Of a stretch of DNA of 64,000 nucleotides, positions 5,139 through 54,425 are shown in pieces (the first letter of the stretch is position 1; every line of letters starts with the position of its first letter). Under the pieces are notes generated by a model, which had not been told where the DNA came from, did not search any database, and was given only the letters and a program-made list of their open reading frames with translations. This DNA comes from a virus. The position numbers and the translations under genes are program-made. The DNA lies in IMG/VR virus record IMGVR_UViG_3300045988_176431, positions 32,001 to 96,000 of that record. The stretch is one strand, 5' to 3'.

Positions 5139-5913
5139 TGTTGTAAATAGCACCCTTATCTAGTAATAGATATTGAAAAACCTATCTAATTGCGGGGAAC
5201 TCTCGTTAGGTCTTAACTACTAACTCAAGATTATTATTTGAGGGCAAAGGGTAATTCCGGAGATATAGTAAAAAGGTTAAGAATAGAGACAATCGACGCA
5301 GCGAAGTTTATTCTAAAAAATAAATAATATGAAATATAAAGAATCAATAATTTTTATAAACGGTGAAAAAAACAAATTATTTAGTTAATACAAAAGGTGA
5401 TGTTATTTCTTTATGTTATAGAGGTATACCTAATAATAGGCATATTATGAAATGAGTAAATTATCTGAATCAGATGTTAAAAATATTTGTAAATTGTTAA
5501 AAAGTAATGTAAATCCAACTGACATTGCAAATAAATTAAATATATCAAGATCAAGTGTTTATAGTATTAAATATAAAAAAACTTGGAGAAGAATATCTGA
5601 TAAGTATTTAAAAGGAAGTGATAAAAAATGATTAGAAATAATATTCGCCGTTTATATTTAAATTATATTATTTAAATATAGAATAAATAAGTTCAACGAC
5701 TATCGAAAGTATAGGTTAAGAGAAATACTTAACTGAATAAACGAGTAGAGTAGACCAGGAGTCTGGGTGCACGAAATTGGTGCTTTACGAAATGGTAGGC
5801 TCCTTATATTTGGTAACAGAATATAAGGATGAAGATATAGTCTAGTATCTCATGGCGACATGAGGAAGTTTATTATAAAACTGGGTTATTTAACGAATAA
5901 TCTGAATACAACG
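5139..5913 (+). mobile_element. group I intron A (decayed homing-endonuclease ORF in a loop)
   Basis: Shared intron core (TAATTGCGGGGAACTCTCGTTA ... AGAGACAATCGACGCAG ... CAACGACTATCGAAAG ... AAGATATAGTC). P1 pairs GGTGT with GCACC, with a terminal U-G. Splicing gives GEFGV-GLTVTNALSS, matching GyrB GGLHGVGASVVNALS. Confidence 0.85.
5329..5631 (+). pseudogene. degenerate HNH homing endonuclease remnant
   Basis: A short N-terminal stub MKYKESIIFINGEKNKLFS* is followed by a 59-aa ORF (5452..5631). That ORF, SESDVKNICKLLKSNVNPTDIANKLNISRSSVYSIKYKKTWRRISDKY, is homologous to the helix-turn-helix middle module of the two intact intron endonucleases. The HNH domain is missing. Confidence 0.7.
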
Positions 5914-8047: not shown

Positions 8048-8064
8048 AAGGAGGGTGAACAGAA

Positions 8065-19467: not shown

Positions 19468-20757
19468 TTAGAAATTATTTAATGTATTAAATAAATCTAA
19501 GTCTATACTTCCCATGTTTTCATCAGAACCATCAATCATATAATCTGCTGTGTTGTCATAAAGCTCACTATCAATGAGATTTTTCTTATATAACATCATA
19601 GATTCTTTTTGGGATTGAGCAATTGCTTTTCTCAGTTCTTCTGCATACATGTCTTTATTTGCTTCTTTCATCATTGTATCATGAATATCTCTTGCTGCTT
19701 CTGTTGAAATATTCTTTGTATAAGCGTCATCAGGTCTATGCAAACCATCATTATTTGCATTTTCAATAACTTCACCTTTATACAAACCAAAAGTCTCTAA
19801 GTTATCACCATGATAGTATACATATAATCCTATTAAGTATGACATAATAGAGTCATCGTGAAAACCTGCTCCTGCTTCGATTTTTCCACTTGGTTTTTTC
19901 ACAAGTCTTGATAAGTCATCCACAATATTTTGACAAATAAATTTATCTTTAAATTCACTAACATGTCTTGACAATATTGCGAACATTGTTTCACGTGAAT
20001 TTCCTTGTGTATAAACACCATAAAATTTCTTTTTCTGAGCATTATTCTTGAGCATACTTTGTACAGTTTCGTTCGAATGCATTTTTTCTTCTTGTAAATC
20101 TCTTGATTTATCAAAATACAGATTTCCTGCAATTGGACTATACATCAAATGATCAATGATACCATCACCTACGTTATTACGCTCAATACAAATAATAGCA
20201 TTTGGAATATATTGCTCAACTAATTCACGAATTACTAATTCATAAAGGGTTTCACCAATATAAGAACATTTAAATTCAGCAACAGGTTCTACCTTATAAG
20301 GATCAATAATTGTCATTGCATTATTATCTCCAAGAGTACCAGTAGAACAGTCAACACCTACAATATATGGAATTGATTTATCAAATTCTTCGTATATATC
20401 TAATTCATAATATTCTTTCAAATAAACTTTCTTAATCGGTCTCTTACATACATCAATGATGTAATCAATATCTTCACGAGCATATGGAGAATTTCCAGAA
20501 CCTTTCAATCGTTGTAATAAAATCTCACGACGAACAGTTAATGGATCACCAATCTCATTAGCGATATCTCTAAACCATTTTTCATCTTTTCCGATTTGAT
20601 GATAATCATATTCAATATATAAAATATGATTGGAATCATCTGCTTTAATCCAATCAATACATTTTTTATCAGACCAATCATACATTTTTTCAGTCCATGG
20701 TCTTGTTTTTGCTAACAATCTTTGTGCTGCCATTCCTTCAGCAGTATCTAAATCACC
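19468..20757 (-). CDS. terL: terminase large subunit, exon 2 (nuclease half)
   Basis: Begins GDLDTAEG. RNase-H-like acidic motifs VGVDCSTG and FHDDSIMSY. Confidence 0.85.
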   Translation of the reverse strand, partial: GDLDTAEGMAAQRLLAKTRPWTEKMYDWSDKKCIDWIKADDSNHILYIEYDYHQIGKDEKWFRDIANEIGDPLTVRREILLQRLKGSGNSPYAREDIDYIIDVCKRPIKKVYLKEYYELDIYEEFDKSIPYIVGVDCSTGTLGDNNAMTIIDPYKVEPVAEFKCSYIGETLYELVIRELVEQYIPNAIICIERNNVGDGIIDHLMYSPIAGNLYFDKSRDLQEEKMHSNETVQSMLKNNAQKKKFYGVYTQGNSRETMFAILSRHVSEFKDKFICQNIVDDLSRLVKKPSGKIEAGAGFHDDSIMSYLIGLYVYYHGDNLETFGLYKGEVIENANNDGLHRPDDAYTKNISTEAARDIHDTMMKEANKDMYAEELRKAIAQSQKESMMLYKKNLIDSELYDNTADYMIDGSDENMGSIDLDLFNTLNNF

Positions 20758-21140
20758 CAATTTATTTTATTCATATAAGTTCGTTATACTTATATCTGTT
20801 TTTATACAGCTATACTTCTCAGTATAGATTAGACTATATCTTCATCCTTATATTCTATTACCAAACATAAAGAGCCTACCATTTCGTAAAGCACCAATTT
20901 CGTGCACCCAGACTTCTGGTCTACTCTACTCAGTTATTCATATATAGATTTCTCTATATACTATCCTTTCGATAGTCGTTGAACATTCCTAATTGTTATT
21001 AGGCTTTGCTGCGGATTGTCTCTATCCTTAACGTTTTTACTATATTTTCAATATTAGTAGGTAAGACTTAACGAGAGTTCCCCGCAATTAGATAGGTTTT
21101 CCTTAAAAGTTTATGCAACTTTCTCACGCCCAGTGATTTT
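20758..21140 (-). mobile_element. group I intron B (ORF-less, minus strand)
   Basis: Reverse complement of the shared intron core. P1 pairs ACGCCT with GGGCGT, with a terminal U-G. P10 pairs AAATCAC with GTGATTT. Splicing gives FTCTP-GDLD. Confidence 0.8.
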
Positions 21141-21977
21141 AGGCGTGCATGTAAATATACGACCATATAATGTATGATTTTTCTTTGATTTTTCTGCGGC
21201 TGTATTAAATGTAGAAACCGAGTTCTGAACAATAACATCAATATGAGATGTAAATTCAGGCTCGTCAAAATGTAATAATGGTGAAGTTAAACCACGGGCT
21301 AAGTTTAATGCCTGTGCATAACTTGTTGCTTTTGCTTTAACGGTAATACTATTTCCTGTCACAGGATGTTGCATACGGGTTGCATTTTTAACCATCTTTG
21401 TAATTTTACCGTCTTCATCCATATAAGATTCAAATCGTAAATATTCAGGTAATATCTCAATTTGTGCAGCGACACGACGTAAATTTTCTTTTGCATTCTC
21501 ACCATCTTTATTTACAAAAATAAAGTTAGAGTTTGAAGTACCAAAAGAATATGCCCATGTTTGTATACACAATGCTGAAACAGTTTTACCTTGCTGACGA
21601 CAAAGACATAACCATGAATCATACCCATGTAATAAACACCAAGCTTGTGCAATATTACCACGATTTGCACGATATGGAACACCATTTTTCATACCAGGCT
21701 CTGGAATTCTTGCTACCTCACGTAGATAATACCAAGGATTCTTTGTACATTCTACCATGATACGTGAAATTTGGTCTTTTGACAAACTTGTTCGTTCTGT
21801 CTTTTCATCTACTTGAAAAGCATCTACATTTGTCAAACTAATATCACATATTTCTAGCATGAAATAAAAGTTTTTTATTCCTACTTTTTTTAAATCAGTA
21901 GCAACTTTTAAAAAACTTTTATTGGCAGTTCCAGTATCATAATACTTTCCATTTATTTTCCTTATTCTATGTGCCAA
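21141..21977 (-). CDS. terL: terminase large subunit, exon 1 (ATPase half)
   Basis: Walker A CRQQGKT, Walker B LLHFDEPE, motif III TCTP. Likely TTG start 8 nt after AAAGGAGG (protein LAHRIRK...). Confidence 0.85.
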
Positions 21978-22067
21978 AAAGATTTCCTCCTTTCTTACAT
22001 GAATTAATATACTGTCATGAATGAAAGAAAAAATATCCATTAAAAACATGATTATAAAGAACGTGAG

Positions 22068-25860: not shown

Positions 25861-25924
25861 CAATTCTAAATAACTGAGAAAACAAAGATATAACGTAATT
25901 GAAATATGAAAGTAGGTGAAAAAT

Positions 25925-28900
25925 ATGTACTTTGTAAACGATTTACCTTATTTAAAAGCAGTTCGTAAAAAAGCTTTTTTGCCAAAGGGTCAACCGATAT
26001 CACAAGGTAATTTAATTTTTCTATTTTCACCATCGATTGAAAAATCATTTGAAATGATCAATGATGAGACAACTGTCCCAAATGGTGGAAAATATTTTTG
26101 GTATTTTTATAACTTATTATATCGAGGAACCATTTATGGAAAACGATATCTTTATCGTGATATGAAAGAAAGACTTGCGATATATAAGCGAGTACCAAAA
26201 GAAACAAATATACGTTCTTATGCAACTAAACCAATTATTAGTGGTACAGAAAAAAGAAACACATATTATGAATTAGCTAGATATTATGAAATATTTAATC
26301 AATATTCAAGTAAATTAAATGCAGTAAAATTGGTTGATTGTTTTTGGAAATACTTTACTCCTATCTTTAAAGATCAATATGGATATTTAGATCATAAATA
26401 TGTCTTAATTAATGCAAATAACTTTAAAGATTTTAAAGGGGATAAATTAAGAGACCAGTTAAATAATCCTTTGTTTTTGATTTATTATACTTTGTGGAAA
26501 CAATTTGATTTGATTGCTGAGTTGGATATTGATTTCATTATTTATGCAAATGGAAAAATCATGAGATTTAACCCATCTAAATGTGATGAAAAATCTTATC
26601 GAATATATCTTAGAGAATTAAAAAAGATATATTCAGTTGCTACAGTTCCAATTGAGACAATTGCTGAAGAAGAAATTAATACTGAGGAAGAAGAAAAAGA
26701 AGAGGAACCGAGAGTAAAGTTTAAATCAGAAAAAATGTCTGTTACTAAAAAAACAGCATTACCAATTGTAGATAAAATTACGGCGGTAGCAACAAAATTG
26801 TCAGCATCTTCAAAAAAGAAGATTGAACAAAAGGTAATTCATAAAGTTTCTTCTGTATCATCTACTATGAATGTCGATAAGATAAAAGATGATGAAAAGA
26901 AAAAAGAGGTTGTAAAAGAAATTCAAAAGAAAGTAGAAGATGAAATTAATACAGATGAAGATGTGATTAAAGAAGTATATAATACAATGCAAAAAGAATT
27001 TGTACCAAAATCAACTTCACGTTCTACTGCTAGAGATAATCTTTTACGAGAAGAACAGAAGAAGTTGAATATCAAAGGTTCAACTTTAAAATCTATTGAA
27101 AAACAAAAAGATGTTGATATTGAAACAACAGATATTACTCAGAATGTAAAAAGCACAAATGAGAATACAAAAATAATCAAGTTTAATAACTTTAATAAAA
27201 CTTATAACGATAAGCTTTTAAATAAAGATATTATGGATTGCTTTACTCAATTGAATAATAAGTCAATTAAGATGTTTATCCGAAATGTCGATATAGAAGA
27301 TACTTCAGATGAATTGAATTATAAAGAAACTTGGACGGTTAAGTTAGAGGATGAAAACAGAAATCGTCATACAATAAAAGTAGATATTCCTAAATTCTTA
27401 GAGTATAAATTTTTATGGCTCGGTGGTAATAGAAAGAATATAAAGAATCAGATGTTCTTTTTACCATTTGTAAAGATTGATAAAGACCGTGTTCTTATTG
27501 TATCTAATTATAATAAGTTTACAATTCAACGAGTGGATACAAAGTCTTTAAGGGGTCTTTCTCGAATTGAAACATTTATTCAGAAATCAGATTCTTTTAA
27601 AGATTACTTTATTTCAGGTAATACTTTCTTTGAAAATAAAGATTTTATTACAGCAATTGAATATGATGAATTTGGAAAGAGTTTTCGTAAATTCCATAAA
27701 TCTCAAACAACGATTTACTTCAGTCAGGTAGAAGCAAAGCATGAGATGGAAAAGAAAATGATAAAGATTAAATCAAATGAAATGTTCATTGGTTTTGAAA
27801 AGGGTGAACCACTTATCCTTAATATTAAAACACAGAAAGATAAAAAGAATCGTGGTATTGTCGATATCATTTTAGATACGATGGATGAAACTCAATTAAA
27901 AGAGTATAAATCTATTAAAACGCCAAAACGGTTGATGCATACTCAGATTACAACAATGAAACAGGATTGTCCACTTATTATCATGCTTTGTATTTGGGAA
28001 GGACTTAGTACGGTATTAAAGAAAGCAAAGATTAAATATCGTTTAGGTGCAAGCATTCGTGATATGAAAGTAAACGAAGATTATATTCGTTTCAAGAATT
28101 GCTATTTGATTTATGAAGATGATATTGAATCTGAATTATTAATCAATGGATTGAAGTTATTAGATACTGCTTCACATGATATTGGTGAATATGAGACACA
28201 AGAAGTTTATCTTCCATATGTTGAAAGGAAATATGGTAGAATAAACGCTATTAATACATTAAATAATGCTTATGAATTTATGCTAGGTTCAATTGAAATA
28301 TCTTTATTAAAAGATATGAATCTTCCAACGGATATTGTATCTCTTTGTATTCATGCAAATGAAGTACTCTGTGATAATCAATACGACAATGAGTTAGTTC
28401 AAACACATTCTCGTATTCGTTGTAATGAAATTATTCCTGCAATTCTTTATGATAAGATTGCAAAAGCTTATACACCATTTAAGAACTCAAATGGTAAAAA
28501 GAAATTATCAATTCCACAAGATTGTGTCATTAAAGAAATTTTAAAGCAAAAAACAGTAGAAGATTATGATTCATTAAATCCTTTATTGGAACTTGAAACG
28601 AATCATGGTGTATCAACAAAAGGATTTCGTGGAATTAATTTGGAGCAGTCTTATAGTGTTCCAAAACGTTGTTATGATGATAGTATGATTGGTGTTATAG
28701 GACCATCTTCATCTCCAGATGGAAATGTAGGTGTAAATCGTTCTCTTACGATGGAACCAAATATTAAAACAGCAAGGGGATATGTAGAAGTAAAGAAAGA
28801 TAATTTGAATGAGGTAAAAGATGTTAATCTTTTCTCTCCAGCAGAACTTTTAATTCCTCTTGGTGTAACACGAGATGATCCAGTTCGAACTGGACATAGT

Positions 28901-29872
28901 GTAAAACAGTCTCGTCATACAATTCCTGTTGTAAAATCTTCACCTGTCCTTATTTCAAATGGTTCAGATGAAATGTGTAAATATTACTTATCTTCTGATT
29001 TTGTTGTAAATGCAAAAATGGATGGTAAAGTAGTTGAAAATGACCCTTCAACAAAAATTATGGTTGTTGAATATAAGGATGGAACTCATCAAGCAATTGA
29101 TTTAGGAAAGAAACTTGCAAAAAATGGTGGTGGAGGTTTTGAATTATCAAATCAATTAATCACAAACTTAACCGTTGGTTCCAGATTTAAAAAGAATGAT
29201 ACACTTGCATGGCATAAAAATTTCTTTAAAAACGATAAATACCAAGGAACACGTTTATGTGTTGGTACATTAGCGAAAGTAGCAATAACTTCTTCTTATA
29301 ATACTTATGAAGATGGTACTTTTGTGACACATGGATTTTCAGAAAAAGCAACAACTGAAATGTGTTTTAAAAAACCTGTCGTAATTGGAAGACACTCAAA
29401 TGTATCTCAGATGGTATCAGTTGGTCAATCAATTAATACTGGTGACCCATTGATTCAGTTTGATGACTCTTTTGAAGAAGCCAATATTAACGTTCTTCTT
29501 AATTCACTTGGTGATAATGAAGAATTAAAGGATGCCGTTATTTCGAATAATAGAAATATTGTAAAATCGAAATATTCTGGTGTAATAGAAGAGATTAAAA
29601 TGTATTCTACAGCAGATTTAGAAGATTTGTCTCCGAGTTTACAAAAAATCTTTAAAAGATATTATGATAAGATAAATAATAGAAAGAAAGTATTGAAAAA
29701 ATACAATGAAAAAGATGGAATTGTGTATTGTGGAATGATGATTAATGAACCTACTGGTAAAGTAGAACCAAATCGTTATGGAACAATACGTGGTGAGAAA
29801 GTAAATGATGGTGTGTTAATTGAGTTTTATATTAAACATCAGGAACCACTAGAAGTTGGTTCCAAAATCGCT
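25925..29872 (+). CDS. RNA polymerase beta-like subunit (long form), exon 1
   Basis: GFRGINLEQSYSVPKRCYDDSMIGVIGPSSSPDGNVGVN aligns to bacterial beta [36 protein letters not shown]. The exon ends at EVGSKIA, corresponding to the GDKxA motif. Start at ATG 25925 after AGGTGA. Confidence 0.8.
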
Positions 29873-30239
29873 TAAAGTTAGGTGATTTAAAACTTACCTA
29901 ATTGCGGGAAACTCTCGTTAAGTTCTAGTTACTAACTTATGATAGTAATATACATAAGGGCAAGGGGTAACTCCTAAGGTATAGTAAAAAAACTAGAAAT
30001 AGAGACAATCGACGCAGGGAAGTATCTCTTATGAGATATGGCTTCAACGACTATCGAAAGGATAATATATAGAGAAATCTATATATGAATAACTGAGTAG
30101 AGTAGACCAGTTAATCTGGGTGTACGTTATTGGTACTTTACGAAACGGTAAGTGTTATAAATATGGTAATAGTATTTATAATAAAGATATAGTCTATTCT
30201 ATATAGTGATATATAGTATTAAAGAATTTTACAGCTTTG
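29873..30239 (+). mobile_element. group I intron C (ORF-less)
   Basis: Shared core. P1 pairs AAATCGCT with GGTGATTT, with a terminal U-G at 29872. The 3' end is ambiguous. G30239 keeps the reading frame with the U-G 5' site. G30234 would fit a P10 pairing but needs a 5' site one nt later. Confidence 0.75.
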
Positions 30240-31157
30240 AAGAATGTAATTGGTGAAGTTGTTGAAAAAGGTTATGAACCTTATTCTGAATTTAGACCAG
30301 ATGAAGAAATTTCAACATTTATTGCATCAAACTCAATTCTATCACGTATGACACCATCTATTCTTTTAAATGGATTTGGTAATAAATGTATTATCGAATT
30401 AAAACGTGCTTTACAAGATATTTGGGATTCAGTATCAGACTTTGCAGTAAGACGTAATACTATGGAATCATTAATTTATCGATTCTTTACGGCATTTGAT
30501 AAGTCAGGTACTAATACAAAACATTATAAAGAAATCTTTTCTTCTATGTCAGATAATCAATTCCAGACTTATTTTAGAGATTTCTTTGCAGATGAAGATA
30601 AGTATTTAATTCTTACAATTGTAGATTACGAAAGAACGATAAAAATGGAAGATATTAGAAGAGCAGCAAAAGTTCTTAATATACCTTTATATGAATATAT
30701 ATTCATACCACACTTAAATCATAATAAAGAACATCCTATTGTGAGTCCTGCAAAAGTTCCTGTTATTTATATTAATATCAAGAGAACACAGCAGACAGTA
30801 GCAAAGAAAAATGGTTTAAGTACAAATGTAGACGAACGTAGTGCTCTTACTGGTCAGGTGGTACGTCATGATAAAAATGGTAGAGAATCTGATCTTGAAA
30901 ATATCATGCTAACATCACTTGGACTTGATAATTGCTTAAAAGAATTAAATGGACCAAGAGCAGATGATTTAGTGATGAAACAACAGATGAATCAATCAAT
31001 TAATTCAAAAGGATATGTTAAATTATCTGATTTGGATGATAAGATTGAAAATAAAACAACATTGAATACCGTAGATACTTATTTCTTAGGAATGGGTCTT
31101 AAGACAGACTTAGTTACAAAAGGATTAAAAACAATATCTACGTTACGAAAAGAATAA
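30240..31157 (+). CDS. RNA polymerase beta-like subunit (long form), exon 2
   Basis: KNVIGEVVEKGYEP...ILSRMTPSILLNGFGNK aligns to beta RHGNKGVVSKI...VPSRMNIGQILE. Confidence 0.75.
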   Translation, partial: KNVIGEVVEKGYEPYSEFRPDEEISTFIASNSILSRMTPSILLNGFGNKCIIELKRALQDIWDSVSDFAVRRNTMESLIYRFFTAFDKSGTNTKHYKEIFSSMSDNQFQTYFRDFFADEDKYLILTIVDYERTIKMEDIRRAAKVLNIPLYEYIFIPHLNHNKEHPIVSPAKVPVIYINIKRTQQTVAKKNGLSTNVDERSALTGQVVRHDKNGRESDLENIMLTSLGLDNCLKELNGPRADDLVMKQQMNQSINSKGYVKLSDLDDKIENKTTLNTVDTYFLGMGLKTDLVTKGLKTISTLRKE

Positions 31158-31719: not shown

Positions 31720-32034
31720 TTATAAATCCTCACTTTCTTCATCTTCTATATCATCACTCAGACCCATCACATCGTCAATAGACATATCATGATCTGCTTG
31801 AGCAATTCTATTAATTTCTTCATTTCTGTCTGCATCATCATCTGGAATCTGATCAATCGCATCATCCAATTGCTCATCTGTAAATTCCGTAGAATCAAAT
31901 GCATCAGGACACATATGTTTTACCGAATCTATGGCATCGTTGATTTCTGCATCTTCGACAATACATTTTGTATACTCCATATCTCTGACCATCTCAGCTC
32001 TTTCTAAGAGAACTGAATTTATTCCATTAGTCAT
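31720..32034 (-). CDS. highly acidic small protein
   Basis: 104 aa, Asp/Glu-rich throughout. RBS AAAGGCGG. Confidence 0.7.
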   Translation of the reverse strand: MTNGINSVLLERAEMVRDMEYTKCIVEDAEINDAIDSVKHMCPDAFDSTEFTDEQLDDAIDQIPDDDADRNEEINRIAQADHDMSIDDVMGLSDDIEDEESEDL

Positions 32035-34375: not shown

Positions 34376-35228
34376 ATGGAAAAAAAGAGTAAAGAGTTTA
34401 ATATACTCATCTCAGTTCCAGAGATTACTAATAAAAAAGATATGAAGAAGTTTTTAAAACCGATTTATATCATAGAAGATTATCTGTTAGATGAATCTCG
34501 TTATGGAGATTTAGAACAGACTATCAGAAATCTTCTTCGTGGATGTTTTCATATTAAAGAATGTAGAGAATATCCAATTGAGTTTAAGTTTTATCGAAAA
34601 GATAAAGAAACACATAAGTTGCAGATTCGAAGATTTTTATATAATCTTTATATTTGGAAACCATTTTGCATGTTAAATGAATTTCATATTCTGGATGAAA
34701 ATTATATTCTTTCAGAAGAAGAAATTCCAAATGTAACAGAGTTTTTGAACGAAAAAATACTTACCACTCTTCAGGATTATAACATTGAACAGATTTTGAT
34801 TAACGAATCAATCTCTAATGTATTATATAGTCTCCGTTCAATTTCATTAGATTTTAGTGATATTATGAATCTTACTTTTAGTGATCATGATTTCATTGAG
34901 ATGTTAAATGATCCAGAATATCGAGAGATTATGGAATTAAAGATTCCTGAAGATATGCAACCAATTGAAGTAGAAAAACTACTTTCTCAGTATCAACAAA
35001 GGTTGGTGAGAAAGTTAAAACAAGATAAAAATAATCCAGTAGGAATCATGCTTAGGGCTGGAACTGGTGTAAAAGAAAAACAGTTAGCAGAGTATATGAT
35101 TGCTATGGGATTGAAGCCAACATTAACTGGTGAAGTTATGCCTATACCAATTGAAACATCATCTCTATTAGGAGGTTTAAATAGACCATCGTATCAGTAC
35201 ATTGATGCGATAGCAGCCCGTAAACCGT
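34376..35228 (+). CDS. RNA polymerase beta-prime-like subunit, C-terminal half, exon 1
   Basis: MLRAGTGVKEKQLAEYMIAMGLKP...PIETSSLLGGLNRPSYQYIDAIAARKP aligns to beta-prime SGARGS..QLAGMRGLM..PI..NFREGL..EYFISTHGARKG. Confidence 0.8.
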
Positions 35229-36541
35229 AAACATAATCTGCGGTTTTAAAACCTATCTAATTGCGGGGAACTGTCTATAATGATTATTTACTAACTTATG
35301 ATGGTGACATACATAAGGGCAAGGGGTAACTCCTAAGGTATAGTAAAAAGAATAATCATTGACACAATCGACGCAGCGAAGTATCTTATTTATTTCATAA
35401 TAAATCATTATAAAGGAGATGATTTAATATGAAAGAAACATGGAAAAAATTTATTTATAATGATATCGAAACAAAATATAGCGTTTCTAATTTAGGAAGA
35501 GTTAGAAATGATAATACTAATTATATATTAAAACCACATGTTCATAAAAAGACAAAATATCACATGATCCCACTTACAATAAATGGAAAAACTAAATTGT
35601 TTAGCTTATCTAGAATGGTGGCAACATTATTTATACCAAATCCAAATAATTATGAAGAAGTAGATCATGTTACTTGTGATAGATATAGAAATGAAGCTCA
35701 TAATCTTGAATGGGTTACTCATGAAGAAAACATGAGAAGAGCGTTAGTAAACGGACTCGTTTACAAAAACGATGGAAGTATGAGATATGTATTTCATAAT
35801 GAAAATGATATTAGAAAATTATGTGAATTATTATCAAATACATGTATCCCTGTTGATGAGTTGTCTAAAATAACGAACATTAGTCAAAATACTATAAATA
35901 AAATACGACTAGGTAAAAGATGGAGAAATATATCAAAGGATTATGATTTTTCTGAATATAATAAATTTATACAAAAAAATTATATTATATCTCATTCTGG
36001 AGAAAATAATTCACAATCAAAGTATCCAGATACATTGGTACATTCTATATGTCATGAACTAGAATTAAACAGAAAAACAATAAGTGAAATTGCAAAAATG
36101 TTTAATGTTCAGAAGAATTACGTATATGAATTAAGAATAGGAAAAGTTAGAACCTTGATTAGTTCTCAATATGATGTAAGCAATCATGATTTAACCGAGT
36201 TTGGATATCATCAAAAAGATTTAAACAAAATAAATGTTTTATTGAAAAAGGGCTATACTGTCCGTGAAATTATAAATAAATTAAATCTTCCAGATAACAA
36301 GAAAACTATAGCAATGATATATGGAAGAAAAAGAAATATGAAATAAATAAGATATGAGTTCAACGACTATCGAAAGTATAGTTATAAGAGAAATCTTATA
36401 ATGAATAAACGAGTAGAGTAGACCAGAATATCTGGGTGCACGAAATTGGTGCTTTGCGAAACGGTAGGTATTATAAATATGGTAATAGTATTTATAATAA
36501 AGATATAGTCTATACATTATGGTGACATAATGAATTATTAG
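35229..36541 (+). mobile_element. group I intron D carrying an HNH homing endonuclease gene
   Basis: Shared core with compensatory changes. P1 pairs AAACCGT with GCGGTTT, with a terminal U-G at 35228. P10 pairs CATAATC with GATTATG. Splicing gives ARKPLIMNKKSMGNAGYFGKKV, collinear with [22 protein letters not shown]. Confidence 0.85.
35429..36346 (+). CDS. HNH homing endonuclease (intron-encoded, I-HmuI-like architecture)
   Basis: VSNLGRVRN N-terminal motif. HNH region EVDHVTCDRYRNEAHNLEWVTHEENMRRA. Repeated HTH modules. RBS AAAGGAG. Confidence 0.85.
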   Translation: MKETWKKFIYNDIETKYSVSNLGRVRNDNTNYILKPHVHKKTKYHMIPLTINGKTKLFSLSRMVATLFIPNPNNYEEVDHVTCDRYRNEAHNLEWVTHEENMRRALVNGLVYKNDGSMRYVFHNENDIRKLCELLSNTCIPVDELSKITNISQNTINKIRLGKRWRNISKDYDFSEYNKFIQKNYIISHSGENNSQSKYPDTLVHSICHELELNRKTISEIAKMFNVQKNYVYELRIGKVRTLISSQYDVSNHDLTEFGYHQKDLNKINVLLKKGYTVREIINKLNLPDNKKTIAMIYGRKRNMK

Positions 36542-37791
36542 TGATTATGAATAAGAAATCAATGGGAAATGCAGGCTACTTCGGGAAGAAAGTATCTGAA
36601 TTATGTAGGACTGTATCTCTTTCTAATAAGGTTTTAAATTGTAAAACAAAGCATTTGATTAAATATGAGATTAAAAATAAGAAATATCTTATGAAATTAA
36701 ATGGTAAGTTTTATAAGATGAATCCTGATGATGAAGATTATAAGGTACTACATTATAAAGATTACGATTTGGTTGGTAAAACTATTTATGCAAGAGGGGC
36801 ACAAACATGTGCTTGTGGACAGAATCTTATTTGTCCGACATGTCTTGGAAAAATTGCGGATTTGAACTGGGATTTGAAAGATGGTATTGGTGTATTTGAG
36901 TCTCAGGAATTATCAAAAGATATTGAACAGAAGATTCTTTCTGGTAAACATCTGTTAACAACAAAGTCAGAGAAGATTGAATTTAGCGATGAATTCTATC
37001 AGTATTTTTCAATTGCTGTTGGAGAGATTTCTCCTATCTTTGATAATATTGATAATATCAATGATTTGGCAATTTACGTTGTACCAGAAGAGATTGAGAA
37101 AGTAGAAGAATATGATGCAGATTCTACTTATAATACTTATATTTCATCTGGAAGATTCTTTGTAAGAAATCTTAAAACAAAGAAAGATATTGAAGTTAAG
37201 ATTTTGAAAAAGAAAGAATTGTATATTACAAGCAATGTCATTAAATCAATTCGTAATAATAATGGTGTAATTAAGTTTAAGGATTTGGAAGAAGATGCTC
37301 CAATCTTTGAAGTTATCATCTTGAATAATGAGTTAACAAAGCCACTATACGAGTTAATCTCTTTATTGGATTCTGAGAAAAAAGAAACAATTGAAGACAG
37401 TACAATTGATACGTTCTCACAAAGATTTTTGGATATTATCATTGAATCTGGAATTGGAGCGTCAATGGTTGCTGCTGAAATTGTAATGAATCGTCTAATA
37501 CGAGAAAGTGATAATGTGATGGATCGTCCAGATTTCTCACAAGAGAAAATGCCAGATTATAATATTTATACGATTCGAAAGATACTTAGAAACAATGAGA
37601 GTATTACAATTGGTTTGGGATTTGAAAACTTAAAAGCTCAGTTATTAAATCCAAATGTTTCTCAGAGAACAGCACCATCTTATATGGATGCTTATTTCAA
37701 AGAAGAACTTCCTACAGAAATTTTAAAGAAGTTTGAACAAGAGGAACCAAAGAAAAAGCAGATGGATTATTATCTAAATGCTTCACACTAG
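36542..37791 (+). CDS. RNA polymerase beta-prime-like subunit, C-terminal half, exon 2
   Basis: GNAGYFGKKV matches the beta-prime SGYLTRRLV motif. A Cys cluster CACGQNLICPTCLG and a trigger-loop-like region follow. Confidence 0.8.
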
Positions 37792-43255: not shown

Positions 43256-43673
43256 TAACATAACAGCCAGTCATATTAGGCGACTAATATGTTACAAACT
43301 CCATGAATTGCGGGGAACTCTCGTTAGGTTCTAGTTACTAAACTAAGATAGTGATATACTTAGTGGCAAAGGGTAACTCCTAAGGTATAGTAAAAAGACT
43401 AGAAATAGAGACAATCGACGCAGGGAAGTATCTTAATAATATAAGATATGACTTCAACGACTATCGAAAGTATAGGTTAAGAGAAATACTTAACTGAATA
43501 AACGAGTAGAGTAGACCAGAAGTCTGGGTGCACGAAATTGGTGCTTTACGAAGTGTGGAGCTCTTTATATTTGGTGACAGAATATAAAGATGAAGATATA
43601 GTCTAATCTATACTGAGAAGTATAGCTGTATAAAAACAGATATAAGTGTAACGAACTTATATGAATAATCATG
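43256..43673 (+). mobile_element. group I intron E (ORF-less)
   Basis: Shared core. P1 pairs ACTGGT with GCCAGT, with a terminal U-G. P10 pairs CATAAC with GTTATG. Splicing gives GHKFTG-RYGNKSVVSRVLPDKDMP, matching GDKMAGRHGNKGVISKI.P.EDMP. Confidence 0.9.
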
Positions 43674-46937: not shown

Positions 46938-49511
46938 ATGTGGATAAAGTATATTTGTCTTGAAAATTTTAAGAATATTAAAACAGGCTTAAAAGCCAAT
47001 CGATTAGAAATTGATTTTTCAAAAAGAGAAAATGTGATTTGTTTATTAACAGGTCCAAATGGAATGGGAAAAACATCACTTCTTAGTTGTTTAACTCCAT
47101 TTGCAACATTAGGAAATTTAGATATTAGAGATGGAAATCAATTAATTATAGAGAAAAAACCTGGATATAAAAGAATTATTATTATGAATGGTCCAGATGA
47201 AATTGATATTGAACATTTCTATTCTGTAAATAAAGAAACCCATTCAGTGAAATCTTATATAAAATTAAATGGAAAAGAATTAAATCCAAATGGTAATGTG
47301 ACATCATTTAAGAACGTTGTGTATGAATTGTTACATATTGATTTAGATTATGTGCGATTAATTCGTTTAGGGGATAATGTAAGCAATTTAATTCAATTAA
47401 AAACAAGTGAACGTAAAAAGTTTATGTCAAAGATGTTACCAAGTGTAGATAATTACTTAAAGTTATACACAAAGCTTTCAGCAGATGTTCGTGATTTAAA
47501 AGTAGTAATGTCACATATTACGGATAATATAAATAAATTAAATATCAAAGATGAAGAAGAATATCAGAAAAAAATGAATGAAATTGATGATGCAATTTCT
47601 TATTATGAAAAGAATATTAATGAAGTAACAGAAGAAATTTATAAATTAACTTATGATATTGAGTCTTTATCTTTAGATTTAGAATATCGAGATGAATTGA
47701 GAAAGTTAAGAAAAAAAGAATCAAGATATCGTTTACTTTTAGAAGATAAAGATTCGTTAAAAGATATTGATACTTTGAAAAAAGAAATTGAGTCTTTATC
47801 TCAGATGATTTTAAAACTTAAATCAGAGATTGAATTCTCAGATCGAGAATATGATATGAAGCTAAATCAATTGGATGATAATAAGAAAGAAATTTCTGAA
47901 TTATCTTATCAGATTGATATAGAGGTACAAAATAGTAATCTCTTATCTTTGAGAGATTACTTAAAAGAACTATTAGAAAAAGAACAAAAAACAAAAGCTG
48001 TTACTCTTCCTTTTGAAATAAATTTTACAAAAGAAGAGTTAGATGATTTTGTTGTTGACTTGAAAAATATTCAGAGAGATTTAAATATTACTTATGAATT
48101 TGGTAAAGGACCAATCACTGAAGTAATTGACTTAATGGAAAAAGATGTTAATATAAGTGATTTTGTTACTGCTAATTTACTTGCTTTAGAAAATAAAAGA
48201 GAGAAAAGTAACAGAACTTATCTTGATTCACTCATTACAAAATATGAAAAAAAGAAAATACCAGATTGTAAAGAATCTTGTATTTTTAGAGATTTATATA
48301 TGGACGTAATGAGAGTAAAAGAAATTAAGTCAGTAGAAACTTCAAATAAATCACCGGAGTATTATCAAATCGTAAAGGTAGTACATGAAAATCTACTTAG
48401 TATTATTGAAAGACTTTCTGAGTTATCTGGGTTTATTAAAAAACTCCCAGCAGAATATCAGAGTATGTTTATAAAAAAGAAAGTCTTTAAATCAATTAAG
48501 AAATGTGAAATGATTTACAAAGATGAAAAGATTAATGAATTGATGAGTATTGTAGCAGAATATTCATATTATATTAAACTGAATCAGGAGATTGAAACAA
48601 CTCAGAAAAACATTGAATCTGAAGAACAAAAATCAAACTTACCATTTTTGGTAAAACAAAAAGAAAAATTAGAAGATAAGAATCAAACATTGATAGATGA
48701 AATTGAAGCATTAAAAGAAAAGATGAATTCTTTATCAAAAGAATTAAAAGAAAAAGAAGAAGAGTTAGAACTCTCAAAAGATAGTATTGGTGCAATTGAA
48801 AACTATACAACAATCAAAGATGATATGATTGAATTAGAAGAAAAGGCTATGAAATATGAGGAATGGTCTAAAGAAAGATTAGAAAAAGAAAAAAAGAAAA
48901 ATGTATTAACTCATGAAAAAACTTTTATGATTAATAACAAAAATCAATATGATATGAATTTCCAAGAGTTTAAGAAACTAACAAAGGAACTTAGAAAATG
49001 TAGAGAGATGTATGATGATTATTTACTCATTCGTTCTGCAACTTCTACAAAAGAAGGAATTCCTTTATTACATATTCAGATGTATTTAAAAGATACAAAA
49101 GAATTGGTAAATGAACTTCTTGACATTGTATATGACGGAAAAATATATATTGATGATTTTTCGATTACAGGAGATGAATTTAAGATTCCATTTATTAAAG
49201 AAGGAACAGAAATACCAGATATATCATTTGCATCTCAAGGTGAAAAAAGTTTCTTAAATATGGCAATTAGTTTTGCCTTATCCATTCAGAATTTAACGGA
49301 ATATAATATTCCGTTATTAGATGAAGTAGATGCAACTTTTGACCAAGAGAATCGAGAAAAAGCAATTGCTATTATTGAACGACAAAATGAAATCATTCAA
49401 TCTGAACAGACATTCATTATTAGTCACAATAATATGTATAATCAGTATCCTGTTGATGTAATTGACTTTTCCGATTTAAAATCTAGTAAGTTTGATATTA
49501 AATTAAATTAA
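46938..49511 (+). CDS. SbcC/Rad50-family ATPase (T4 gp46-like)
   Basis: Walker A GPNGMGKTS, a long coiled-coil middle, ABC signature SQGEKSFLNMAISFAL, Walker B PLLDEVDATFD. Confidence 0.85.
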   Translation: MWIKYICLENFKNIKTGLKANRLEIDFSKRENVICLLTGPNGMGKTSLLSCLTPFATLGNLDIRDGNQLIIEKKPGYKRIIIMNGPDEIDIEHFYSVNKETHSVKSYIKLNGKELNPNGNVTSFKNVVYELLHIDLDYVRLIRLGDNVSNLIQLKTSERKKFMSKMLPSVDNYLKLYTKLSADVRDLKVVMSHITDNINKLNIKDEEEYQKKMNEIDDAISYYEKNINEVTEEIYKLTYDIESLSLDLEYRDELRKLRKKESRYRLLLEDKDSLKDIDTLKKEIESLSQMILKLKSEIEFSDREYDMKLNQLDDNKKEISELSYQIDIEVQNSNLLSLRDYLKELLEKEQKTKAVTLPFEINFTKEELDDFVVDLKNIQRDLNITYEFGKGPITEVIDLMEKDVNISDFVTANLLALENKREKSNRTYLDSLITKYEKKKIPDCKESCIFRDLYMDVMRVKEIKSVETSNKSPEYYQIVKVVHENLLSIIERLSELSGFIKKLPAEYQSMFIKKKVFKSIKKCEMIYKDEKINELMSIVAEYSYYIKLNQEIETTQKNIESEEQKSNLPFLVKQKEKLEDKNQTLIDEIEALKEKMNSLSKELKEKEEELELSKDSIGAIENYTTIKDDMIELEEKAMKYEEWSKERLEKEKKKNVLTHEKTFMINNKNQYDMNFQEFKKLTKELRKCREMYDDYLLIRSATSTKEGIPLLHIQMYLKDTKELVNELLDIVYDGKIYIDDFSITGDEFKIPFIKEGTEIPDISFASQGEKSFLNMAISFALSIQNLTEYNIPLLDEVDATFDQENREKAIAIIERQNEIIQSEQTFIISHNNMYNQYPVDVIDFSDLKSSKFDIKLN

Positions 49512-50740: not shown

Positions 50741-50750
50741 GAATAAGATA

Positions 50751-50786
50751 GAAAGGTGTTATAATAAAATAGCACCTTTCTTTTTT
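50751..50786 (+). terminator. intrinsic terminator
   Basis: Stem GAAAGGTG / CACCTTTC followed by a T6 run. Confidence 0.7.
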
Positions 50787-50818: not shown

Positions 50819-51244
50819 TTGATTAAATATCTTAAAAATTATGCTTCTGAATTTGAAAGAGATTTAAATATTCCTCTTATGAACAAAGAAGCAGATAGAC
50901 CATTAGTTGAATATGTAATTGATTCATGGAAATCATTACAGATTCTTGATGGTATCGAATTTCTTGATTATGAGTATACAGAAAAAGAATCTGATATTGA
51001 GATTAATAAGTATATTTATAAACGTGAGAAAGGAAAACGCAAAAACGAGAAATTTGATTACAAATTTGTGGATGATAGTAGATGTGGACTTCTTACTGTC
51101 CGTATGAAATTATCTGCAATTGAAAAAGATTTCAAAACAGGTGATACGTATTTAAAAGAAAAAATTATTAAAAAGAGTATGTTGATTCCTTTACAGGATG
51201 ACAAAGGACTATTCTGTATCAAAGGAAAAAATTACTATTTGATT
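50819..51244 (+). CDS. RNA polymerase beta-like subunit, N-terminal half, exon 1
   Basis: TTG start 9 nt after AAGGGGG. Ends at MLIPLQDDKGLFCIKGKNYYLI, aligning to beta IPLMT..GTFIINGTERVIV. Confidence 0.8.
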
Positions 51245-51617
51245 TAGTTTGATAGATCAAACAAAACTCTTCTAATTGCGGGGAACTCTCGTTAGGTCTT
51301 AACTACTAAACTAAGATGGTGACATACTTAGTGACAAGGGGTAACTCCTAAGGTATAGTAAAAAGGTTAAGAATAGAGACAATCGACGCAGCGAAGTATC
51401 TTATAAATAATAAGGTATAAGATATGAGTTCAACGACTATCGAAAGGATAGCATAAGAGAAATACTTATGTGAATAACTGAGTAGAGTAGACTAGTATAT
51501 ATTATACTAGGTGTACGAAATTGGTACTTTACGAAATGGAGAGCATATTATATTTGGTAATAGAATATAATGTGAAGATATAGTCTAATCCTCATGGATA
51601 ACATGATGGTGTAAATG
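51245..51617 (+). mobile_element. group I intron F (ORF-less)
   Basis: Shared core. P1 pairs TTTGATT with GATCAAA, with a terminal U-G. P10 pairs TTGATA with TATCAG. Splicing gives NYYLI-YQMVEKS. Confidence 0.85.
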
Positions 51618-52379
51618 TATCAGATGGTAGAAAAATCTACCTATACGTCAAATAATTCTGTTATTTTGAAATCTTTAATGCCTTTTATGATAAAAAGACA
51701 AATAACAAAACAGGAAGATATTCATGAAAATGAATATCAGATTCCTTATTATACCATTGATTTGTTTCGAAAAGATATTCCGATTATGCTTCTTTATGCA
51801 TCCAAAGGAATGAATCGTGCGTTACAATATGCTATTCAATCCTATCCTTATGTAGCAATTAACTTTGTTACAAAACCAAAAGAAACGGACAAAAAGCATA
51901 TTTATTTCCAGATATCTTCTAAGTTGTACTTAAAAGTACATAAGAAGTTATTTGAAAAGTTTCCATATATCCAATCCGTAGTTGGTGGTATTTTACATAT
52001 CTCAACGAATCGATTGACATTGGATAAATTGGATAATACAGATATCTGGATTAAGAAATTAAGTAATAATAACATTGAAAAAGGAAAGAATCTTTTAGAT
52101 TCTTTAAAACGTCTTTTAGATGTAACTACAAAGAAAATATTAAAAACAGATATATCAAACAAATTAGATGTACTTGCTGTTATTCGTTGGATGAGTCAAG
52201 ATTTCAATGAATTACGAATGAAAGATAATATGAATATTGAAAATAAGCGATTACGATGTAATGAATACATTGCATCTTTACTGACACAAGAATTTAGTAA
52301 GAAACTTAATCGTATTATGTCTCTAGGTGGAAAAGCAACCATTGATAATCTTAGAGAAATTTTCAAATTTCCAGGCGAT
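51618..52379 (+). CDS. RNA polymerase beta-like subunit, N-terminal half, exon 2
   Basis: In-frame continuation, YQMVEKSTY...EIFKFPGD. Confidence 0.8.
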
Positions 52380-52742
52380 AGAATTAGAGTGTCGCCGTTA
52401 AACCTATCTAATTGCGGGAAACTCTCGTTATGTTCTAGTTACTAAACTAAGATGGTGACATACTTAGTGGCAAAGGGTAACTCCTAAGGTATAGTAAAAA
52501 GACTAGAAATAGAGACAATCGACGCAGCGAAGTATCTTATAAGTATAAGATATGAGTTCAACGACTATCGAAAGGATAGCATAAGAGAAATACTTATGTG
52601 AATAACTGAGTAGAGTAGACTAGTATATATAAATACTAGGTGTACGAAATTTGTACTTTACGAAACGGTAGGCTCTTTATATTTGGTAATAGAATATAAA
52701 GATGAAGATATAGTCTAAACTTTATGGATAACATAGAGAATG
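52380..52742 (+). mobile_element. group I intron G (ORF-less)
   Basis: Shared core. P1 pairs GGCGAT with GTCGCC, with a terminal U-G. A 7-bp P10 pairs TTAGAGT with ATTCTAA, fixing the 3' site at G52742. Confidence 0.8.
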
Positions 52743-52895
52743 ATTCTAATTCAGAAGATGCATAGTAGTGGTGTATTCCGATTTGATGATAACATCAACG
52801 ATATGGATTTCTTTTCAAGGTTCAAATTCACGAATAAAGGACCTCACTCTGCAGGACAAAAGAATGGAAATAGTGTTGGTGTTAAGTACAGGGGT
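52743..52895 (+). CDS. RNA polymerase beta-like subunit, N-terminal half, exon 3 (153-nt micro-exon)
   Basis: SGVFRFDDNINDMDFFSRFKFTNKGPHSAGQKNGNSVGVKYRG is collinear with beta [41 protein letters not shown]. Confidence 0.75.
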
Positions 52896-53973
52896 ATGGT
52901 TGAATGCTCCTGTAAAACTCTTCTAATTGCGGGGAACTCTCGTTAAGTCTTAACTACTAACTTATGATAGTAATATACATAAGGGCAAGGGGTAACTCCT
53001 AAGGTATAGTAAAAAGGTTAAGAATAGAGACAATCGACGCAGCGAAGTATCTTCTATATATAAAATGGAAAGGAGGCAAAATCAAATGAAAAAAGTAATT
53101 GATTGTAAAAGAGTGATGCATGATAATATAAAATTAAATTATTTTATATTTACTGATGGAAGTATATTTAATGCTACAACTAATCATGAATTAAAACAAT
53201 ATAAAGATAAAGATGGATATCCTACAGTTTGTTTATCCAATAAAGGAAAACATTGGACAATTCATGTTCATCGATTAGTTGCGTTAACATTTATTCCAAA
53301 TCCATTAAATAAACCAGAAGTTAATCATATAGATGGTAATAAATCAAATAATGATATTAGTAATTTAGAATGGGTTACTGGAAGTGAAAATGTAAGACAC
53401 GCCTATCTCAATGGTTTACATGATAATGTAGCGATTGGTGAGAAACATGGTATGAATAAATATACTGAAAAACAAATTAAACATGTTTGTCAATTATTAG
53501 AAGAAAATTCTAATACACTCAATGAAATTGCTGAACTAACAAATGTTCCAAAATCAACAATTCATGATATTATATCAGAAAAATACTGGACTCATATTTC
53601 TAAAAAATATAAAATATCAAATTTTGATAAAAAATCTATTAGACGGTTAGATTCTCAAATGAAAAATGAAATGAGATATCTAATAAGAAAAGGATATCGT
53701 CAATGTGATATTTTAAGACATTTTAATTTAGAGACTAGTAAAAAGAATTATGGAATGATTAAAAGATATTATTATAAAATAAAAGAAGATACAAGTTCAT
53801 CGACTATCGAAAGTATAGGTTAAGAGAAATACTTAACTGAATAAACGAGTAGAGTAGACTGATCAATCAGGTGCACGAAATTGGTGCTTTGCGAAACGGA
53901 GAGCATATTATATTTGGTAATAGAATATAATATGAAGATATAGTCAGGTTATACAGTGATGTGTAAGTTTTAG
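52896..53973 (+). mobile_element. group I intron H carrying an HNH homing endonuclease gene
   Basis: Shared core. An 8-bp P1 pairs ACAGGGGT with GCTCCTGT, with a terminal U-G. P10 pairs GGTTGAAT with ATTCACCC. Splicing gives VKYRG-IHPSMIGYID, matching [13 protein letters not shown]. Confidence 0.85.
53086..53823 (+). CDS. HNH homing endonuclease (intron-encoded)
   Basis: RBS AAGGAGG 8 nt upstream of MKKVIDC. HNH region EVNHIDGNKSNNDISNLEWVTGSENVRHA. HTH modules. The 3' end runs into the conserved intron core. Confidence 0.85.
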   Translation: MKKVIDCKRVMHDNIKLNYFIFTDGSIFNATTNHELKQYKDKDGYPTVCLSNKGKHWTIHVHRLVALTFIPNPLNKPEVNHIDGNKSNNDISNLEWVTGSENVRHAYLNGLHDNVAIGEKHGMNKYTEKQIKHVCQLLEENSNTLNEIAELTNVPKSTIHDIISEKYWTHISKKYKISNFDKKSIRRLDSQMKNEMRYLIRKGYRQCDILRHFNLETSKKNYGMIKRYYYKIKEDTSSSTIESIG

Positions 53974-54381
53974 ATTCACCCATCAATGATTGGATATATT
54001 GATATGACTGTTTGCGGTAATTCTGACCCAGGCACATCGGGGCTTCTCTCGCCCTTTAGTAAGTTAAAAGGATTATCTTTTAATGATGATATGGAGCCAG
54101 ATAATTTTAAGTTTGAGTTCATAAAAGAGGTTAAGAAGATTATGGATGAAGAAGGAATTGATTATATTGATCTTGACTTTGAGAAGAAAGAAGATTACTA
54201 TTCCTTTGTCAATACTCTTCATGACTTTAATGTGGATAACATTCATGTCAATTATATTGAACGAGAAAAGGAATATGATAAAGTTATTCAAGAAGAGGAA
54301 GAAGATTTAGAAGAAACTTTATCATTCCAAAATAATAAACCAAAGAAGGATGATAAGAAAAAAGAAGCAAAGAAGAAATAA
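53974..54381 (+). CDS. RNA polymerase beta-like subunit, N-terminal half, exon 4
   Basis: IHPSMIGYIDMTVCGNSDPGTSGLLSPF aligns to [26 protein letters not shown]. Acidic and basic C-terminal tail. Confidence 0.8.
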   Translation: MHPSMIGYIDMTVCGNSDPGTSGLLSPFSKLKGLSFNDDMEPDNFKFEFIKEVKKIMDEEGIDYIDLDFEKKEDYYSFVNTLHDFNVDNIHVNYIEREKEYDKVIQEEEEDLEETLSFQNNKPKKDDKKKEAKKK

Positions 54382-54389
54382 ATATATTG

Positions 54390-54425
54390 GTGTAGCGGAA
54401 GTTTTGAATTCCGCTACACTTTTTT
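54390..54425 (+). terminator. intrinsic terminator
   Basis: Stem GTGTAGCGG / CCGCTACAC followed by a T run. Confidence 0.8.

Follow-up and report, generated by a model that had tools for sequence, protein, structure and literature searches.

Three predicted group I introns, one of them with an HNH endonuclease gene, in the RNA polymerase beta-N gene of an AR9/PBS1-like jumbo phage from the human gut

A stretch of 64,000 nucleotides of the IMG/VR virus record IMGVR_UViG_3300045988_176431 (positions 32,001 to 96,000), in the following called the window, was analysed for its gene organization between positions 50819 and 54381, where four open segments are parted by three non-coding or foreign stretches. 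With high confidence, these segments are the exons of a single gene of an AR9/PBS1-like human-gut jumbo phage that encodes the N-terminal half of an RNA polymerase (RNAP) beta subunit (beta-N) and contains three group I introns, which would excise themselves and of which the third carries an HNH endonuclease gene (Table 1). Joined, the exons form an in-frame open reading frame (ORF) of 1,749 nt within a gene extent of 3,563 nt and encode 582 amino acids (aa) up to one terminal stop. All four exon sizes are divisible by three, thus introns 1 to 3 are all in phase 0. The start codon of exon 1 is TTG with AAAAGGGGG 7-8 nt upstream. The boundaries were determined by a splice-site script that collected all in-frame T/...G/ joins near the ends of tblastn high-scoring segment pairs and scored the translated junctions against homologs, blind to the coordinates proposed earlier in a sequence-only reading of the window. 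Its optima (51244/51617, 52379/52742 and 52895/53973) were unique, without ties, and equalled all six boundaries of that reading. The four exon coordinates proposed there, the estimate of about 1.75 kb of coding sequence in 3.56 kb and the spacing of 51 codons between the second and third intron (exon 3, aa 397-447) are hence borne out. The underlying proposal, one beta-N gene of four exons requiring three splicing events per transcript, is supported by group I intron cores, guide pairings in the helices P1 and P10, flanking terminators, junctions that are contiguous in relatives and purifying selection, which together argue for it on the level of the sequence.

By sequence comparison, the gene is assigned as an ortholog of AR9 gp105, coding for the beta N-terminal half of the non-virion multisubunit RNAP. 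The spliced product matched the AR9 non-virion RNAP (PDB 7s00_c) with an E-value of 4.8e-52 over the query residues 66-485 and, with a profile, of 4.4e-78 over the positions 11-488; the alignment was unbroken over the junctions at aa 142/143, 396/397 and 447/448. The best tblastn matches in AR9 and PBS1 were in both cases gp105, annotated as non-virion RNAP beta N-terminus. AR9 thus shares with the window the orthologous protein (PDB 7s00) and the same split-subunit polymerase, but its gp105 is uninterrupted and the protein identity is only about 30 %. Several AR9 genes reportedly contain group I introns or inteins. In 90 of the 120 best homolog clusters the protein was undivided and about 580 aa long, with a gapless alignment over all three junctions. 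AR9/PBS1-like jumbo phages were the closest isolated relatives of the window proteins, and four RNAP-subunit-like genes lie in the window, counting the beta-N gene. Pfam yielded no domain in the spliced 582-aa protein. The mean conservation was 0.79 in exon 3 versus 0.66, 0.65 and 0.52 in the other exons. The earlier claim that this small exon encodes the most conserved part of the protein holds for the exon means, but the best-conserved 51-aa stretch, residues 420-470, straddles intron 3 and only overlaps exon 3, whose own residues 397-447 rank 29th among 532 windows of the protein. A collinearity with the segment SQLSQFMDQ...EVRD of the E. coli beta subunit had been proposed as well; it is plausible by eye, but weak by test, as BLASTP with an approximate version of the E. 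coli segment gave an E-value of 0.039 for the aligned pattern GP...R.[VI]HP..G. A family profile of 36 sequences searched against PDB reached AR9 alone, not bacterial or PhiKZ-type beta subunits.

Introns 1 and 2 were both matched over the full length by the Rfam model RF00028, which has a gathering threshold of 50 bits (intron 1 at 51235-51608, 59.9 bits, E-value 1e-12; intron 2 at 52370-52738, 57.1 bits, E-value 8e-12). For intron 3 no Rfam match was obtained at gathering or E-value thresholds, since an ORF of 738 nt divides the core. The two core halves, 52896 to about 53060 and about 53783 to 53973, are split by this ORF in the P6 loop; they matched the family profile (nhmmer E-values of 6e-47 and 2e-46), and the first 165 nt and the last 185 nt, approximately, align with introns 1 and 2. 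A close relative, the 249-kb contig IMGVR_UViG_3300045988_176405 (L004, beta-N gene at 6001-9957), has exons 97.5 % identical to those of the window and at codon 447, the site of intron 3, an intron of 358 nt without HNH ORF, which is 93-96 % identical to the halves of intron 3 and scores 63 bits in Rfam. As this ORF-less ortholog is a group I intron in Rfam, intron 3 is read as this ribozyme, with its P6 loop occupied by an ORF. The guide pairings define the ends of all three introns. The exon-side P1 helices comprise 7 bp in intron 1 (U51244.G51255), 6 bp in intron 2 (U52379.G52391) and 9 bp in intron 3 (U52895.G52906), each with a U.G pair at the cleavage site, and the terminal intron base is G throughout (51617, 52742 and 53973). 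Adjoining P1 on the guide sequence, P10 pairs with the own 3' exon over 8, 10 and 5 bp, respectively; among random positions of the window, 0.2 %, 0.015 % and 1.6 % gave a P10 equally long or longer.

Covariation was inspected in 23 aligned ORF-less introns of the family, taken from the window and related contigs. The helices P3, P4, P6 and P8 and the P7 pseudoknot were 98.9 % paired, versus 30-50 % with slid 3' partners, and compensatory changes were present in 16 of 33 pairs, a value reached in none of 500 shuffles. P7 was 98.3 % paired with two compensated positions. By this covariation, the ribozymes of the three introns are judged to be under structural selection and not relics. The cores had been described as nearly identical, which is overstated: core identity is 90 % between introns 1 and 2, 84 % between 1 and 3 and 82 % between 2 and 3, with full-length identities of 77-86 % and longest exact shared runs of 88, 68 and 31 nt, respectively. 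The P3 strands are CUCUUC/GGAGAG in introns 1 and 3 and CCUAUC/GGUAGG, a doubly compensated variant, in intron 2. Members of this intron family have an extended region between P7 and P3' and resemble the introns of Twort-like phages. Two other classes of intervening elements were considered and rejected: inteins, as the inserted stretches have RNA structure and either do not code or lie out of frame, and group II introns, as neither a reverse transcriptase ORF nor a corresponding Rfam match was present.

The presence of introns varies among genomes that are 93-99 % identical. Protein cluster P0131 (417 aa, contigs up to 252 kb) reads continuously through NYYLIYQMVEK and thus lacks intron 1, clusters P0133 and P0137 have a continuous FKFPGDILIQK without intron 2, and clusters P0146 and P0143 (89 % identity) have a continuous KYRGIHPSMIGY without intron 3. 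An empty site of intron 2 was also seen on the DNA level, in contig L068 (93-97 % identical), where the position of 52380 in the window is joined directly to 52743; in this contig, intron 3 is without ORF and codon 465 is followed by an additional intron, whose HNH/NUMOD4 ORF is a different one. Exact 20-mers over the three exon-exon junctions were searched against IMG/VR: two were without match and one had a chance match in unrelated DNA (L067). In L004, seven exons join to an ORF of likewise 1,749 nt that differs from the window in 42 codons, 40 synonymous and 2 non-synonymous, indicating purifying selection on the spliced frame. Between 51476 and 52795, four independent human-gut assemblies were 100 % identical to the window; the longest of them (L063, 51480-52795) begins within intron 1 and extends through its 3' part, exon 2 and the complete intron 2 into the first part of exon 3.

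Empty sites, synonymous bias and identical assemblies exclude a pseudogene and render an assembly artefact very unlikely. The latter would mean that the assembler, misled by the repeated intron copies, joined or duplicated non-contiguous segments, and the exact runs of 31-88 nt common to the three introns could have invited this; moreover, contigs with a beta-N exon often break inside introns (all four checked were below 2 kb). Exon order and phase are however correct, the guides match their own flanking exons only, which a misassembly would not give, the assemblies from independent samples agree fully with the window within 51476-52795, with L063 spanning all of intron 2 into exon 3, and the same sites are found in the large contigs L004 (249 kb) and L068 (27 kb). 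An artefact is thus very improbable as the origin of this gene structure. Within the comparison to L004, intron 2 stands apart: window 52380-52742 and L004 7562-7925 are 88 % identical with flanking exons of 97-99 %, and the 51 codons of exon 3 show 9 synonymous differences, roughly double the rate in the other exons. This divergence suggests an intron replacement or gene conversion around homing sites.

The layout of the locus fits a single transcript. Terminator-like hairpins lie at both ends of the unit (Table 1), while inside the gene only one weak terminator-like match was present (52414-52428), situated in the conserved core of intron 2. Upstream of the gene the AR9 early-promoter motif AAATATATATTAT was not found; TACTATAATAT was present there, but not enriched in the window, and no promoter was assigned on its basis. 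A scan for sigma-70 promoters in the window, which has a G+C content of about 29 %, gave sites no more frequent than in shuffled sequence. From one precursor transcript of about 3.6 kb, each of the three group I introns would excise itself. In P1 the guide sequence would pair with 6-9 nt at the 3' end of the upstream exon, where the U.G wobble would mark the splice site, and an external guanosine bound at P7 would attack this 5' splice site. In P10 the guide would then pair with the 5-10 nt that open the downstream exon, and the freed exon would attack after the terminal G of the intron, thereby joining the exons. Three such events would restore the 582-aa frame.

Several observations weigh against this reading. 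Splicing is deduced here from sequence, and helper-free self-splicing cannot be assumed, because in Bastillevirinae four of eight validated introns were spliced in infected cells only, not in vitro, according to the report on these phages (PMC11878797). After exons 2 and 3 the reading frame runs on for 22 and 16 codons, respectively, into the intron, through P1-P4, so that translating ribosomes could disturb the folding. The 738-nt ORF delays the completion of the intron 3 core. The window is a metagenome assembly containing repeats of about 370 nt with 80-90 % identity. Finally, the in-frame ...AAUG ends of introns 1 and 2 may allow a separate initiation on unspliced RNA.

This last point leads to the view that the pieces are translated separately, with the introns as dead relics and the beta-N half built from three or four polypeptides. 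In-frame ATG codons stand one codon before exon 2 (51615) and exon 3 (52740), the TAG that opens intron 1 is a stop in the frame of exon 1, and jumbo-phage beta and beta' subunits are already divided into separate genes. Yet the ATG belongs in both cases to the conserved AAUG terminus (51614-51617 and 52739-52742), without a good Shine-Dalgarno sequence. Family introns elsewhere end in the same way, one of them at a site in phase 1, and across sites and phases the terminus looks like an intron feature rather than a start codon. The first ATG of exon 4 lies four codons in and its use would remove the conserved IHPS. In addition, the ribozyme cores are intact and kept by compensatory changes, the guide of each intron pairs specifically with its own flanks in P1 and P10, and the majority of the homologs are undivided proteins with a length of about 580 aa. 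Separate translation is consequently very improbable, and a splicing of all four exons into one product is preferred.

Similar introns on one transcript may pair with the wrong partner, as the sequence-only reading speculated; the pairings lend limited support to this. The cross P1 pairings between the guides and the other exons reach 1-3 bp and the cross P10 pairings 0-4 bp. The sole cross P10, of 4 bp, forms between the guide of intron 2 and exon 4, compared to 10 bp with its own exon, and would skip the 153-nt exon in frame. The P3 helix of intron 2 would have two central mismatches in a hybrid with a half of intron 1 or 3. Such an orthogonality of P3 was considered as a designed safeguard against hybrid folding and rejected, as two adjacent introns of L004 share one P3. 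Exon skipping is possible, but not favoured by the pairings. A functional alternative splicing goes further: a fraction of the transcripts would skip exon 3 or exons 2-3, yielding in-frame short products or a smaller amount of active subunit, and the splicing efficiency would tune the polymerase level. This is unlikely, although all exon lengths are multiples of three and keep skipped products in frame, the P3 strands of introns 1 and 3 are the same and an exact run of 68 nt is common to both, the guide of intron 2 can form the 4-bp P10 with exon 4, and an experimental precedent exists in Twort orf142 and the phage SIOphi (PMC11878797). The best-conserved residues of the protein family are encoded in exon 3 and at the beginning of exon 4, so a product without them is unlikely to be functional; the own pairings of the introns (P1 6-9 bp, P10 5-10 bp) exceed the cross pairings, and the P3 mismatches of intron 2 stand against hybrids with the halves of introns 1 and 3.

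The ORF in intron 3 has an ATG at 53086 that is preceded by GAAAGGAGG, an own Shine-Dalgarno sequence; the mechanical ORF start is 53065. The Pfam domain HNH_3 was detected with an E-value of 7.5e-11 and 41.9 bits (cutoff 24.8), and helix-turn-helix matches at residues 132-174, approximately, were all below the Pfam cutoffs (E-values 6e-4 to 6e-3). Residues 18-110 matched the nicking homing endonuclease I-HmuI (PDB 1u3e, E-value 8.8e-12), with ...VNHIDGNKSNN...NLEWVT..EN... in the intron-3 ORF aligned to ...VDHKDGNKDNN...NLRWVT..IN... in I-HmuI; the aligned motif residues are those which we take to be the catalytic His and Asn of I-HmuI. The last 12 codons or so of the ORF overlap the P6 3' strand, J6/7 and P7 of the intron (53780-53823). 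Translation of the HNH protein and folding of the ribozyme therefore compete, as ribosomes finishing the ORF would unfold the core, and the overlap may link the synthesis of the nuclease with splicing. The empty site of intron 3 reads ...AAGTACAGGGGT/ATTCACCCATCA.... As an enzyme of the I-HmuI type, the predicted endonuclease would most likely nick or cut intron-less gene copies in co-infecting relatives. Cutting would drive the copying of intron 3, probably together with the ORF-less intron 2 at a distance of 153 nt by co-conversion. In related contigs, introns at six further sites of the beta-N gene encode related proteins (33-49 % identical to the intron-3 HNH); together with the variable presence of the introns among genomes of 93-99 % identity, these ORFs are indirect evidence of homing. 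Another related protein is encoded by a second intron in the window (35429-36346, 34 % identical).

The beta-N gene is a crowded insertion target in relatives. L004 has six introns, after codons 142, 396, 426, 447, 465 and 468, leaving exons of 426, 762, 90, 63, 54, 10 and 344 nt. The 10-nt exon CCAGGCACAT between the last two introns serves the first of them as 3' exon and the second as pairing partner in P1; these two introns scored 48.8 and 50.8 bits in Rfam. Relatives of the gene with 45-90 % protein identity were surveyed in protein clusters (P0002-P0149) and 60 contigs (L003-L060 among these). Insertions were located after codons 396, 426, about 430-433, 442 (phase 2), 447, 461, 465, 468 (phase 1) and about 471, amounting to approximately ten sites of family introns within codons 396-471, and many of the introns had homologous HNH ORFs. 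A further site lies near codon 310 (L044), while site 142 is limited to the lineage of the window. Two introns per beta-N gene were common, and about one quarter of the homolog clusters were ORFs ending early at one of the intron sites. At the gathering threshold, Rfam recognized a single intron (L028) in 13 related loci, the others were recovered with the family sequence profile. Within this clade of AR9-like phages, which stem from gut and other metagenomes, both the sites occupied by this one intron family with its I-HmuI-like HNH genes and the identity of the nuclease-bearing intron differ among genomes that are 93-99 % identical. No published description of a beta-N intron hotspot was found in a limited literature search. 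The window itself contains eight introns of the family, six of them in RNAP genes (Table 1). Two genes upstream of beta-N, at 46938-49511 on the plus strand, an 857-aa SMC/RecF-like ATPase with long coiled coils is encoded, for which the Pfam match to SMC_N was weak and below the cutoff.

Table 1 Coordinates of the beta-N gene, its introns and the other family introns in the window
Feature	Position	Strand	Basis or remark
Terminator-like hairpin and T-run, end of upstream gene, 5' limit of unit	50750..50781	+	13-bp stem then TTTTT
Exon 1, 426 nt, aa 1-142, ends ...NYYLI	50819..51244	+	Start aligns with Met1 of homologs
Intron 1, predicted ORF-less group I ribozyme, 373 nt	51245..51617	+	Rfam 59.9 bits, P1/P10, empty site in P0131
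Exon 2, 762 nt, aa 143-396, YQMVEK...FKFPGD	51618..52379	+	Homolog alignment, splice script; 100 % identical in independent human-gut assemblies
Intron 2, predicted ORF-less group I ribozyme, 363 nt	52380..52742	+	Rfam 57.1 bits, P1/P10, empty sites in L068 DNA and P0133/P0137
Exon 3, 153 nt, aa 397-447, ILIQKMHSS...VGVKYRG	52743..52895	+	Highest mean conservation of the four exons
Intron 3, predicted group I ribozyme, 1,078 nt	52896..53973	+	Core halves, ORF-less ortholog in L004, P1/P10, empty site in P0146/P0143
HNH homing endonuclease (predicted), C-terminal helix-turn-helix, 245 aa	53086..53823	+	Pfam HNH_3, I-HmuI homology
Exon 4, 408 nt including stop, aa 448-582, IHPSMIGYIDMTVCGNSDPGTSGLL... 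then acidic/lysine-rich tail	53974..54381	+	Homolog alignment, splice script
Terminator-like hairpin and T-run, 3' limit of unit	54389..54420	+	Hairpin scan; 8 nt past stop codon
Protein junctions NYYLI/YQMVEK, FKFPGD/ILIQK, KYRG/IHPSM			Junction peptides NYYLIYQMVEK, FPGDILIQK, GIHPSMIGYIDMTVCGNSDPGTSGLLSPFSK
Family intron	5167-5861	+	In topoisomerase II/GyrB-like gene 4771-8047
Family intron	20802-21150	-	In large terminase 19468-22049, minus strand
Family intron	29883-30206	+	In RNAP subunit gene 25916-31157
Family intron with NUMOD4/HNH/HTH ORF (35429-36346)	35246-36525	+	In RNAP subunit gene 34376-37791
Family intron	43295-43633	+	In RNAP subunit gene 42104-44771

Genes with several introns in phages and HNH-bearing introns in jumbo-phage RNAP genes are already known as a kind; the clustering of the sites and the sibling with six introns place them in a new context. 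Exon skipping by similar introns in one phage gene is not a new idea either. In orf142 of the Staphylococcus phage Twort, three group I introns reside in one gene and exon skipping occurs, according to later reports (Landthaler & Shub 1999, cited in PMC3073962 and PMC11878797). Twort is a herellevirus of about 140 kb and orf142 a structural gene (tail tube), whereas the host gene in the window encodes a polymerase subunit. The relation to Twort-like phages extends to the sequence: in a Twortvirinae phage, the DNA polymerase I intron has 82 % identity with intron 3 in the segment P3-P6 (about 125 nt), carries an HNH ORF (44 % identical to the intron-3 HNH over 98 aa) and is followed by a short exon. 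A megablast search of the beta-N gene against 50,697 phage records recovered only this 125-nt intron segment, in Twort-like Staphylococcus phages. In the Staphylococcus phage vB_SsapH-Golestan101-M (LC557520.1, 1-3126), the DNA polymerase I intron with HNH ORF is followed by an exon of 186 nt and then by an insertion with an HTH (helix-turn-helix) endonuclease; a small exon between introns is common to this gene and beta-N. In Bastillevirinae, 2-3 group I introns with a small internal exon are present in DNA polymerase and terminase genes, and exon skipping was observed by nanopore cDNA sequencing (Weglewska et al. 2025, PMC11878797). Transcripts without the internal exon accounted for 47.2 % for one gene of SIOphi, given as terminase in the Results and as polymerase in the Discussion of that report (PMC11878797). 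The affected genes differ from those of the window, as they code for DNA polymerase, TerL, thymidylate synthase and ribonucleotide reductase, not for RNAP, with a reported maximum of three introns per gene.

Closer in gene content is the phage PhiPA3, where a group I intron with an HNH gene interrupts a highly conserved segment of the RNAP beta gene gp210 and the nuclease targets the homologous site of a co-infecting phage (Birkholz et al. 2024, PMC11620839). Both cases share an HNH-bearing group I intron in a multisubunit RNAP beta gene of a jumbo phage. In PhiPA3, however, a single intron occupies another site, in the C-terminal part behind the two Asp residues that correspond to E. coli D675, and the gene cut in PhiKZ, a nucleus-forming Pseudomonas phage, is that for the virion RNAP beta subunit gp178, whereas the window has three introns, two of them ORF-less, in the non-virion beta-N gene. 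The jumbo gut (Jug) phages carry on average 18.5 group I introns per genome and hundreds of HNH genes in essential genes, and metatranscriptome reads support splicing for about half of the predicted introns (PMC12880540). They resemble the window as gut jumbo phages with many group I introns and HNH genes, but are Bacteroides/Phocaeicola phages of 360-402 kb with introns of about 206 nt on average in terL, nrdD and DNA polymerase genes; interrupted RNAP genes were not reported (PMC12880540).

The distribution of the introns in the beta-N gene may be viewed as more than that of passive selfish DNA. We tentatively consider the locus as a multi-site interference and immunity system, a view that is rather doubtful at present: each inserted intron would destroy the recognition site of the matching endonuclease, stacked ORF-less introns would so provide immunity, and the ORF-bearing intron would act as a weapon against co-infecting relatives, as in PhiPA3. 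To this arms-race view belongs the equally tentative assumption that the beta segment with the intron sites lines the active-site cleft. Such a system would in addition require the correct folding of six similar ribozymes on one mRNA.

Gene callers fragment intron-split genes, and RNAP subunits of gut jumbo phages are therefore likely under-annotated. If splicing is confirmed, an essential subunit of the phage transcription machinery would depend on three ribozymes of 82-90 % core identity that have to fold right on one RNA. With introns 2 and 3 only 153 nt apart and an ORF of 738 nt in one of them, the gene would be a compact natural test of co-transcriptional folding fidelity and exon skipping, and the six-intron gene of L004 with its 10-nt exon would be an even stricter one. 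The population data suggest that introns preferentially home to a segment of the jumbo-phage RNAP beta subunit that corresponds, by a weak alignment, to the rifampicin pocket and fork loop. The recent finding that nucleases of RNAP-gene introns mediate the competition of co-infecting phages is extended by these data.

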